The position numbers and the translations under genes are program-made. The notes below the pieces were generated by a model, which was not told the DNA's origin, did not search any database, and was given only the letters and a program-made list of their open reading frames with translations. From Escherichia coli (lineage in GTDB: Bacteria > Pseudomonadota > Gammaproteobacteria > Enterobacterales > Enterobacteriaceae), in the NCBI RefSeq assembly GCF_003334355.1, contig NZ_QOWP01000048.1: DNA of 19,380 bases; one strand, 5' to 3'. Positions 9,330 to 11,478 of the stretch are shown here, one piece after another; position 1 is the first letter of the stretch; every line of letters begins with the position of its first letter.

Positions 9330-10502
9330 ATGATTGATTATACCGCAGCCGGTTTTACCCTGCTGCAGGGAGCGCATTTGTATGCGCCGGAAGATCGGGG
9401 AATTTGCGATGTCCTCGTCGCTAACGGCAAAATTATCGCCGTTGCCAGTAATATCCCTTCTGACATTGTACCGGACTGCACGGTTGTCGATCTCAGCGGG
9501 CAGATCCTCTGCCCAGGTTTTATTGATCAACACGTCCATTTGATTGGCGGTGGCGGCGAAGCAGGTCCCACGACGCGCACGCCGGAAGTGGCGTTAAGTC
9601 GTCTGACGGAAGCAGGCGTCACGTCAGTGGTTGGTCTGCTGGGCACCGACTCTATCTCTCGCCACCCGGAATCCCTGCTCGCCAAGACCCGTGCGCTCAA
9701 TGAAGAAGGCATCAGCGCCTGGATGCTGACCGGCGCTTATCATGTCCCTTCCCGCACTATTACGGGTTCCGTGGAAAAAGACGTGGCGATTATCGATCGC
9801 GTGATTGGCGTGAAATGCGCCATCTCTGATCACCGTTCTGCCGCACCGGACGTTTATCACCTGGCTAATATGGCGGCGGAATCCCGCGTTGGCGGTTTGC
9901 TCGGCGGTAAACCTGGCGTCACCGTGTTCCACATGGGCGACAGCAAAAAGGCGTTACAGCCTGTCTATGACCTGCTGGAAAACTGCGATGTGCCGATTAG
10001 CAAGTTGCTGCCGACCCACGTTAACCGCAACGTTCCGTTGTTTGAGCAGGCGCTGGAGTTCGCGCGCAAAGGCGGCACCATCGATATCACCAGCAGCATT
10101 GACGAACCAGTCGCCCCTGCCGAAGGTATTGCCCGCGCCGTTCAGGCGGGTATTCCGCTGGCACGCGTCACCCTCAGCTCCGACGGCAACGGTAGCCAGC
10201 CGTTCTTCGATGACGAAGGGAATTTAACCCATATCGGTGTTGCCGGTTTTGAAACGTTGCTGGAAACCGTGCAGGTGCTGGTCAAAGATTATGATTTCAG
10301 TATCAGCGATGCCCTGCGCCCGCTCACCAGTAGCGTAGCCGGTTTCCTTAACCTGAGCGGGAAAGGCGAAATTCTGCCAGGCAATGACGCAGACTTACTG
10401 GTCATGACGCCAGAATTACGCATTGAGCAGGTATACGCTCGCGGCAAGCTGATGGTCAAAGACGGCAAAGCCTGCGTGAAAGGAACGTTTGAAACGGCAT
10501 AA
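9330..10502 (+). CDS. iadA: Isoaspartyl dipeptidase IadA (amidohydrolase superfamily), 390 aa
   Basis: AAGGAG 6 nt upstream of ATG 9330. Metal-binding HxH motif in FIDQHVHLIGGGGE. Recognised as IadA. Confidence 0.9.
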   Translation: MIDYTAAGFTLLQGAHLYAPEDRGICDVLVANGKIIAVASNIPSDIVPDCTVVDLSGQILCPGFIDQHVHLIGGGGEAGPTTRTPEVALSRLTEAGVTSVVGLLGTDSISRHPESLLAKTRALNEEGISAWMLTGAYHVPSRTITGSVEKDVAIIDRVIGVKCAISDHRSAAPDVYHLANMAAESRVGGLLGGKPGVTVFHMGDSKKALQPVYDLLENCDVPISKLLPTHVNRNVPLFEQALEFARKGGTIDITSSIDEPVAPAEGIARAVQAGIPLARVTLSSDGNGSQPFFDDEGNLTHIGVAGFETLLETVQVLVKDYDFSISDALRPLTSSVAGFLNLSGKGEILPGNDADLLVMTPELRIEQVYARGKLMVKDGKACVKGTFETA

Positions 10503-10507
10503 ACGGT

Positions 10508-10554
10508 TGTCAGCCGCCCGAATGGACGTAGAATGCCCGCAAGGGCGGCTGACA
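10508..10554. promoter_or_regulatory. Perfect 12-bp inverted repeat (TGTCAGCCGCCC ... GGGCGGCTGACA) with 23-nt loop in the iadA-hypT spacer; possible terminator or processing/regulatory structure
   Basis: Read directly: arms at 10508-10519 and 10543-10554 are exact reverse complements. Begins 6 nt after the iadA stop and ends 13 nt before the hypT ATG. No U-tract follows. Confidence 0.5.
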
Positions 10555-10566
10555 GAGTAAAACGTA

Positions 10567-11478
10567 ATGGATGACTGTGGTGCGGTTTTGCATAATATTG
10601 AAACTAAATGGCTTTATGATTTTCTGACCCTGGAAAAATGCCGCAATTTTTCCCAGGCAGCAGTCAGTCGCAACGTCTCGCAACCGGCATTCAGCCGCCG
10701 CATCCGTGCGCTGGAACAGGCGATTGGCGTTGAATTGTTTAACCGCCAGGTGACGCCGCTGCAACTCTCGGAACAAGGTAAAATATTCCATTCGCAGATC
10801 CGCCATCTGTTGCAACAGTTAGAGAGCAACCTTGCAGAACTCCGTGGTGGCAGCGATTACGCGCAACGCAAAATTAAAATAGCCGCTGCACACTCTCTTT
10901 CCCTCGGGCTGTTACCGTCCATTATCAGCCAGATGCCGCCGCTCTTTACCTGGGCAATTGAAGCTATTGATGTCGATGAAGCGGTCGATAAACTGCGTGA
11001 AGGGCAAAGTGACTGTATTTTTTCCTTTCACGACGAAGATTTGCTGGAAGCGCCGTTTGACCACATTCGCTTATTTGAATCTCAATTGTTCCCCGTTTGC
11101 GCCAGTGACGAACACGGAGAAGCACTTTTTAACCTCGCGCAGCCACACTTTCCGTTACTGAATTACAGCCGCAACTCCTACATGGGGCGATTGATTAATC
11201 GCACCCTGACGCGCCACAGTGAGTTAAGTTTCAGCACCTTTTTTGTCTCTTCGATGAGCGAGCTTTTAAAGCAGGTTGCCCTCGACGGCTGTGGGATTGC
11301 CTGGCTACCGGAATACGCCATCCAACAAGAAATTCGCAGCGGGCAGCTCGTTGTACTGAATCGGGACGAACTGGTGATCCCGATTCAGGCCTATGCATAC
11401 CGGATGAATACCCGCATGAATCCAGTTGCCGAACGCTTCTGGCGTGAACTGCGCGAGCTGGAGATTGTGCTTAGCTGA
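10567..11478 (+). CDS. hypT: LysR-family hypochlorite-responsive transcriptional regulator HypT (YjiE), 303 aa
   Basis: N-terminal LysR helix-turn-helix ([39 protein letters not shown]). 303-aa ORF recognised as HypT. Confidence 0.9.

Follow-up and report, generated by a model that had tools for sequence, protein, structure and literature searches.

A conserved inverted repeat between iadA and hypT of Escherichia coli is probably an RNA stem-loop and holds a predicted hypT promoter

Introduction

An intrinsic (Rho-independent) terminator is a GC-rich hairpin that ends a transcription unit, with a loop of 3-8 nucleotides and a U-tract, and the RNA polymerase of Escherichia coli terminates poorly when the U-tract is missing. 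Stable GC-rich stems lacking a U-tract are found just past stop codons in the REP/BIME sequences and the other U-less 3' stem-loops (e.g. the malE-malF REP), which lie between two genes of the same strand and whose pairing is conserved; the hairpins left after the trimming of Rho-terminated transcripts are of this U-less, 3'-protective kind. An ordinary sigma-70 promoter consists of two hexamers 16-18 nucleotides apart and needs no complementarity between its -35 hexamer and the first transcribed bases, and the autoregulatory operator of a LysR-type transcriptional regulator (compare the HypT sites at fhuA), with its T-N11-A dyad, overlaps the promoter of the regulator gene.

The inverted repeat analysed here, located between iadA and hypT of E. 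coli, resembles each of these systems in part. It shares with an intrinsic terminator the GC-rich hairpin at the end of a transcription unit, but it has no U-tract on either strand, a loop of 23 nucleotides instead of 3-8 and, in the Term-seq tables examined, no mapped 3' end. Like the REP and U-less 3' stem-loops it is a stable GC-rich stem without a U-tract, just past a stop codon, between two same-strand genes and with conserved pairing; it differs from REP/BIME sequences by its single copy per genome, its large structured loop and the predicted promoter inside the hairpin. This candidate promoter, TTGTCA-16-TAGAAT, has the conserved spacing of an ordinary sigma-70 promoter, except that its -35 hexamer and the first bases predicted to be transcribed are mutually complementary. 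The repeat also overlaps the putative promoter of a LysR-type regulator gene, as an autoregulatory operator would, HypT binds a fragment of the region in vitro (PMC3792123), and its core spacing is near the 25-30 nucleotides proposed for the reduced HypT tetramer (PMC6397515). Unlike such an operator, it has neither a T-N11-A dyad nor similarity to the HypT footprints, its arms differ between genera while the recognition helix is near-constant, and its inner positions covary like those of a nucleic-acid helix.

To our knowledge, HypT is one of only three HOCl-specific regulators known in E. coli and Salmonella. Gebendorfer 2012 and Drazic 2013 PNAS reportedly define a hypT promoter fragment of 158 bp. 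In EMSA with 20 nM DNA, 6 uM HypT shifted a "hypT promoter" fragment of this length, the site not being localised (PMC3792123). Jo et al. proposed, from docking of the reduced StHypT tetramer, two motifs 25-30 nucleotides apart, and the level of hypT mRNA in Salmonella was unchanged by HOCl (PMC6397515). The unit upstream of hypT is given in RegulonDB-derived tables as yjiHG-iadA, dependent on sigma-S/Crl and excluding hypT (PMC3946193, PMC6469107). A limited literature search yielded no published mapping of the hypT promoter, no report of post-transcriptional control of hypT and no description of the iadA-hypT element, which is apparently undescribed so far.

Results

Position and predicted fold of the inverted repeat

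The DNA analysed (hereafter the window) is a stretch of 19,380 nucleotides of the E. coli chromosome, and the genes of the region are yjiH, yjiG, iadA, hypT, and iraD. The initial annotation, made from the sequence alone, had reported a perfect 12-bp inverted repeat with a 23-nucleotide loop in the spacer between iadA and hypT; its coordinates, the 64-nucleotide length of the spacer and the 13-nucleotide gap before hypT were all correct, and the two gene names agreed with the RefSeq annotation under the blastn match. The spacer extends from the end of the iadA open reading frame (9330-10502) to the start of hypT (10567), on the same strand. The two arms, of 12 nucleotides each, are 100% complementary and 23 nucleotides apart, and the right arm ends 13 nucleotides before the A of the hypT ATG. 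The features are the following.

10500..10502, + strand: iadA stop codon TAA, 5 nucleotides before the left arm; iadA is annotated in the RefSeq relatives
10508..10519, + strand: left arm TGTCAGCCGCCC, which with T10507 gives a 13-pair stem; its outer 9 nucleotides, TGTCAGCCG, are invariant in 19 orthologous sequences
10523..10539, + strand: upper hairpin, in which a 3x3 internal loop is followed by pairing of TGG (10523-10525) with CCG (10537-10539)
10527-10529 with 10533-10535, + strand: CGU/AUG mini-helix capping the upper hairpin, from the fold and the alignment
10543..10554, + strand: right arm GGGCGGCTGACA (plus G10555), the outer part of which, CGGCTGACA, is nearly invariant; about +3 to +14 of the predicted hypT transcript
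10553..10557, + strand: Shine-Dalgarno-like CAGAG, which abuts and overlaps the right arm at its 3' end and precedes the ATG by 9 nucleotides; CAGGA or CAGGT in relatives
10567..11478, + strand: hypT (yjiE/qseD) coding sequence for a LysR-type regulator, from the open reading frame and RefSeq annotation

The inverted repeat was confirmed to be real and non-random: it was the sole perfect inverted repeat of at least 12 bp (loop 3-60) in the window, and dinucleotide shuffles of the window (n=60) contained a mean of 0.03 such repeats per window. A U10507-G10555 wobble forms the 13th pair of the stem, and the complete E. coli helix has 13 + 3 + 3 pairs, broken by internal loops. The predicted RNA folds of the + strand (-30.8 kcal/mol, z = -4.1) and of the - strand (-31.0 kcal/mol, z = -4.7) were each equalled by 0 of 200 shuffles. 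No further copies of the arms (two mismatches or fewer) were found in the window beyond chance, and cmscan of positions 9800-11200 against Rfam, with E up to 10, gave two chance-level matches, both outside the repeat.

A possible pairing of the right arm (10544-10552) with TCAGCCGCC (10691-10699) in hypT, a 9-nucleotide perfect match, was rejected as not conserved, since this stretch encodes the FSRR of the recognition helix and its synonymous sites vary freely in relatives. The loop (10520-10535) contains a direct repeat, GAATG-N6-GAATG, with a period of 11 nucleotides, which is kept as (G/C)AATG...(G/A)AATG in all 19 relatives; the -10 hexamer described below accounts for the second copy only.

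Two other repeats were seen in the window. The first (14393-14426) consists of ACTGGTCAACCAAA and TTTGATTGACCAGT, 14 nucleotides long, 93% complementary and separated by a 6-nucleotide spacer; its offset from locus L001 places it between uxuB and uxuR, in the intergenic region that on the minus strand immediately follows uxuB and precedes uxuR, and its role could be that of a terminator or of an operator of the GntR type (UxuR/ExuR). The second (11356-11388) is a perfect 11-nucleotide inverted repeat, CTGAATCGGGA-11-TCCCGATTCAG, within the 3' end of hypT; read on the minus strand, it is situated about 85 nucleotides past the stop codon of iraD, which overlaps the end of hypT, and our scan found no T-run and called no terminator there.

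Distribution and conservation of the element

The results of our blastn searches (11-nucleotide words) showed that the element is present in 5390 of 5426 complete E. coli genomes, always at the iadA-hypT junction, with a median of one place per genome and a maximum of two. This single place per genome ruled out a REP-like dispersed repeat, and the element has no obvious resemblance to what we take to be the REP consensus. We then scanned for HypT in one genome per species, which gave 73 loci, and added 11 further loci through relatives of HypT. Apart from these extra loci, iadA was directly upstream of hypT only in L002-L016 of the 73 (Escherichia, Citrobacter, Salmonella, Pluralibacter, Entomohabitans, and Hafnia), and no comparable repeat was found at the scanned loci where the hypT homologue is not preceded by iadA.

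Comparison of the 49-nucleotide element of E. coli with those of Salmonella, Citrobacter, Pluralibacter, and the metagenomic relatives showed 78-92% identity, while the third-codon positions of the flanking hypT and iadA genes were 34-57% identical in the same cross-genus comparison. These identities indicate that the element is under purifying selection. In the alignment of 19 distinct sequences, TTGTCAGCCG, AATG, CGTA-AAT, and CGGCTGACAG were invariant or nearly so; the outer 9-10 bp of the arms were sequence-invariant across genera, and the right arm was conserved as much as the left one. Rare single G-to-A variants occur in the right arm among E. coli strains. Two such changes recur independently in E. 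coli (L089 and L090), S. diarizonae, and P. lignolyticus (L008 and L078), the first resulting in GGGCGACTGACA and the second in GGGCGGCTAACA; on the + strand both introduce a C-A mismatch, which would be a G-U pair on the - strand.

Some E. coli strains also differ in hypT itself. In TUM1881 (L091), a 7-nucleotide duplication (ATGGATG ATGGATG, window 10567-10575) shifts the annotated start codon, and the coding sequence is unannotated under the match in several other strains (H15, H22, and H28); hypT may be a pseudogene or truncated in such strains, as is presumably the case of qseD in EHEC.

The iadA-hypT spacer of more distant lineages carries other arms. Hafnia and a relative have the unrelated arms CTGTTGTCGC-44/42-GCGACAACAG (z = -3.8 and -5.7), and Serratia fonticola has GTGGTTATT-16-AATAACCAC, also unrelated (z = -3.5). 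A structure persists in this spacer where its sequence differs. In Entomohabitans, TAGAAT is kept and the stem is mostly lost (z = 0.19); at least one lineage can thus do without the hairpin. The GC-rich inverted repeats around a TATAAT in Edwardsiella were all taken as chance, two of the three folds doing no better than their shuffles (z = -0.4 and -0.7) and that of E. hoshinae being borderline (z = -2.6; 1 of 200 shuffles).

Three further observations concern these loci. In L081, a metagenomic relative with 74% identity in HypT, the spacer is 180 nucleotides long (1321-1500) and keeps TTGTCAGCCG, which pairs locally in a short-loop hairpin (GUCAG.CCGGGCUC....); a -10-like TATAAAAT is found about 60 nucleotides further downstream and hypT seems to start with TTG, such that promoter and hairpin are apparently un-nested in this lineage, to judge from its sequence. 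In Salmonella (L076, 1383-1440; L008/L009), about 55 additional nucleotides between the iadA stop codon and the repeat contain a second hairpin (CCCGC...CUGAAAGAGGAUGGG), and the fold of the whole spacer reaches -58.5 kcal/mol (z = -4.8). The convergent gene after hypT is iraD in E. coli and a gene of the Asp/Glu racemase family (PF01177) in Salmonella, Pluralibacter, S. fonticola, and the metagenomic relatives (L076-L087).

Covariation in the stem

When the 18 pairs of the helix were examined in the 19 sequences, 85.7% of the cells were paired, compared with 28-41% when the 3' partners were slid. Double changes were present in 5 of the 18 pairs (22 cells), and the covariation score of the alignment was not attained in any of 500 column shuffles; compensatory changes were likewise seen in a count on the first 15 sequences. 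The variants were CG/UA/UG at pair 10, CG/UA/AU at pair 11, CG/UA at pair 12, GC/CG/GU at pair 13, and GC/CG/AU at pair 18, and RNAalifold predicted the same stem together with a small upper helix. The inner three to four pairs of the stem change together, being CCC/GGG in Escherichia and Salmonella, TTC/GAG in one Citrobacter group, TGT/AGA in C. amalonaticus, TCC/GGA in Pluralibacter and L084, and CAC/GTG in L080 and L083. The length of the perfect stem varies from 12 bp in E. coli to 13 in L084, 14 in L080, 15 in Salmonella, and 18 in L083, where a loop of 11 nucleotides and 18-19 continuous pairs give -38.7 kcal/mol (z = -9.9). The outer 9 pairs (9-10 bp) never covary.

The compensatory changes are of the sort expected from a structured RNA element, in a helix whose outer 9 pairs never vary, and they indicate that the repeat is under selection for base pairing. 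The invariance of the outer arms fits a sequence-specific recognition as well as it fits a left arm fixed by the -35 hexamer and a right arm fixed by pairing. The wobble evidence is mixed and picks neither an RNA strand nor DNA: the U-G pairs of Citrobacter and Pluralibacter fit RNA of the + strand, while RNA of the - strand would turn the C-A mismatches of S. diarizonae, P. lignolyticus, and two E. coli strains into G-U pairs.

In E. coli, template-switch mutagenesis is well known to act on quasi-palindromes, producing "compensatory" changes in one step and lengthening perfect palindromes. The repeat could accordingly be a functionless quasi-palindrome around a working promoter, in which not selection but replication errors templated by the hairpin (template switching) maintain and lengthen the complementarity. 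A perfect stem of 18 bp, as in L083, is what template switching would yield, and uncompensated single mismatches in E. coli strains, together with the nearly lost stem of Entomohabitans, also fit this explanation. Replication errors would not, however, explain why the right arm is conserved like the left one when only the left one overlaps a promoter hexamer, why the conservation of the element is far above that of neutral sites, or why unrelated inverted repeats fill the same spacer in Hafnia and S. fonticola, and we find this origin quite improbable.

A predicted promoter nested in the repeat

Our promoter scan of positions 10200-10800 found exactly one sigma-70-like site, with 10 of 12 matches (0.3 expected in shuffles), and this site is inside the repeat. 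No minus-strand promoter was found within the repeat by the same scan. The predicted elements are listed below.

10507..10512, + strand: -35-like TTGTCA, overlapping the first half of the left arm; invariant in 19 sequences
10529..10534, + strand: -10-like TAGAAT, situated in the apical loop; every relative has TAGAAT or TAAAAT
10541..10542, + strand: predicted hypT transcription start (A), placed by promoter geometry 7-8 nucleotides after the -10 hexamer

The initial annotation had missed the chief feature of the anatomy, this conserved sigma-70-like promoter, with its -35 hexamer in the left arm and its -10 hexamer in the loop. The hexamers of TTGTCA-16-TAGAAT have the 16-18 nucleotide separation expected of a candidate sigma-70 promoter, and this distance was 16 nucleotides in 19 of 19 orthologous sequences. 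In the alignment, indels were present only after the -10 hexamer (one extra base in C. amalonaticus and two in L080); fixed hexamers at a fixed spacing, with indels only past the -10, are the pattern predicted for a working promoter. By coordinate conversion, the predicted start corresponds to 4558315/4558314 of MG1655 (minus strand) and is one to two bases before the right arm. A transcript that starts at the right arm lacks the left arm, so hypT's own transcript would form no hairpin. The available parts of the supplementary tables of four E. coli transcription start site studies and of one Salmonella promoter study hold no iadA or hypT entry that would give the primary 5' end of hypT.

The masking of the Shine-Dalgarno sequence in read-through RNA was rejected as a general mechanism, as its accessibility (-14 to -7, partition function) was not consistently lower in the read-through than in the promoter-proximal RNA (0.59 and 0.47 in E. 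coli, 0.68 and 0.53 in Salmonella, 0.13 and 0.44 in C. amalonaticus, respectively).

The stem could instead be a hairpin of the hypT 5' UTR, controlling stability, processing or translation, if the real start were upstream, in iadA or at the yjiH promoter, and the hexamers were incidental. The covariation supports an RNA structure, and in all lineages, Hafnia included, the stem ends at the Shine-Dalgarno-like CAGAG/CAGGA, 9-11 nucleotides before the ATG. Interrupted helices of about 19 pairs are of the general kind cut by RNase III, and the helix of the repeat resembles such substrates by analogy. A loop would not, however, require the invariant TTGTCA, TA(G/A)AAT and 16-nucleotide spacing that a promoter would; moreover, there is no second promoter-like site in 10200-10800 and the accessibilities given above do not differ consistently between the two RNAs. 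We regard a hypT leader hairpin as distinctly unlikely.

Absence of a canonical terminator

The observation, already made in the initial annotation, that the repeat has no U-tract and is not a canonical intrinsic terminator was upheld: neither strand has a T-run and the loop is 23 nucleotides long. The scan of 10200-10800 found no terminator-like sites on either strand, the stem being followed by AGAGTAAAACG on the + strand and by ACCGTTTATG on the - strand, and an intrinsic terminator was ruled out on both strands by the missing T-run and by the loop of 23 instead of 3-8 nucleotides.

An unconventional terminator or attenuator, a hairpin that stops or pauses the polymerase coming from iadA, limits read-through and shields the hypT promoter from interference, would agree with a stable GC-rich hairpin located directly after a stop codon and between two annotated transcription units. 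It is nevertheless very improbable: neither strand has a T-run after the stem, the sequence that follows it on the 3' side is neither conserved nor U-rich in relatives, and termination in E. coli is poor without a U-tract. The full Term-seq tables of Adams et al. 2021 likewise contain no 3' end at iadA, hypT or 45583xx, for an operon that was perhaps poorly expressed there.

The repeat as a possible HypT binding site

The proposal of the initial annotation that the palindrome is a LysR autoregulatory site for HypT was disfavoured by our results, as there is no T-N11-A dyad, the arms vary while the recognition helix is near-constant, and the spacing is variable. The region 10480-10580 contained no T-N11-A box symmetric at 9 or more of its 13 positions, and the best matches to the two fhuA footprints of HypT, TTACGTTATCATTCA and AACCCTTCCTTTTCA, were 9 of 15 and 10 of 15, respectively, which is within background. 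E. coli and Hafnia share the HypT recognition helix SQPAFSRRI, of which S. fonticola has one residue changed; the Edwardsiella helix reads SQSAFSRRI. The arms did not track this helix: with a near-identical helix they are unrelated (Hafnia and S. fonticola) or absent. The spacing of the conserved cores is 29-31 bp, and the Hafnia arms are 42-44 bp apart.

A protein operator on duplex DNA, in which the arms are inverted half-sites and a symmetric regulator clamps the promoter of hypT between -35 and +14, whether this regulator is HypT (as an autoregulating LTTR tetramer) or some other factor, would explain the invariance of the outer 9-10 bp across genera, as base-specific contacts would produce it. 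It would also agree with the shift of the 158-bp fragment by HypT (PMC3792123) and with the distance between the invariant cores, 29-31 nucleotides compared with 25-30 from the docking of the tetramer (PMC6397515). A protein bound to the cores would, however, have no need of the inner positions, which keep their complementarity through double changes; neither is the core spacing fixed, given the Hafnia arms, and arms unrelated to those of E. coli accompany the same or a one-residue-different recognition helix in Hafnia and S. fonticola. The missing dyad, the background level of footprint similarity, the EMSA done at 6 uM protein for 20 nM DNA with no localised site, and the unresponsiveness of Salmonella hypT mRNA to HOCl also argue against an operator, which we consider unlikely.

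Discussion

The inverted repeat is probably an RNA stem-loop that marks the end of the iadA message, rather than a terminator or a HypT binding site. Pairing needs both arms in one RNA, so that only transcripts reading through the iadA stop codon can pair; the selected pairing, the presence of no more than one of the two arms in the predicted hypT transcript and the restriction of the element to loci with iadA together point to an RNA stem-loop in iadA read-through. Among the functions put forward in the initial annotation, an RNA stability or boundary element is the best-supported class because compensatory changes keep the pairing, the function itself being one that we infer. A stable, GC-rich and U-less hairpin right after a stop codon has the anatomy of a 3'-protective or intercistronic stabiliser and not that of a terminator.

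Our best reading, which we hold tentatively, is that the core promoter of hypT is wrapped in a stem which forms only in the yjiHG-iadA read-through RNA and which protects or bounds that message. The hypT gene would be transcribed from the nested sigma-70 promoter, with a start near A10541 and a 5' UTR of about 26 nucleotides that contains the right arm only. Transcripts of yjiHG-iadA that extend past the iadA stop codon would carry both arms and form, 5 nucleotides after the stop codon, a stem-loop of about -31 kcal/mol. This stem-loop would block 3'-to-5' exonucleases, and in doing so define and stabilise the 3' end of yjiHG-iadA in the manner of REP-type and U-less hairpins; it would also delimit this message from that of hypT, which would be promoted separately. 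The Term-seq tables of Adams et al. 2021, which have no entry for iadA or hypT, lend this reading no support. We infer the transcription start, the existence of the read-through RNA and its stabilisation from the sequence comparisons.

A further possibility, which we consider doubtful, is a switch by transcript origin, in which the read-through RNA folds and is cut, trimmed or unproductive for hypT, while the RNA from the nested promoter is hairpin-free and translatable.

The analysis supplies a concrete predicted hypT promoter, with a -35 hexamer at 10507-10512, a -10 hexamer at 10529-10534 and a start near 4558315 of the MG1655 minus strand. That the palindrome would be a selected structure rather than a HypT box bears on the reading of EMSAs performed with "hypT promoter DNA". 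The element is real, conserved and probably functional, and it belongs to an ordinary kind, combining a promoter with an intergenic stem-loop, the unusual detail being the nesting of the promoter in the hairpin. If the nesting does not separate the two messages, the element would be a routine conserved intergenic stem-loop; if it truly separates those of yjiHG-iadA and hypT, it would be a compact insulation of tandem genes without a canonical terminator. Should the switch by transcript origin be true, a single sequence of 47 nucleotides would close one message and open the following one, shielding the level of the HOCl sensor from the adjacent operon, in an architecture that would have been kept, or re-invented with unrelated arms, in Hafnia and Serratia.
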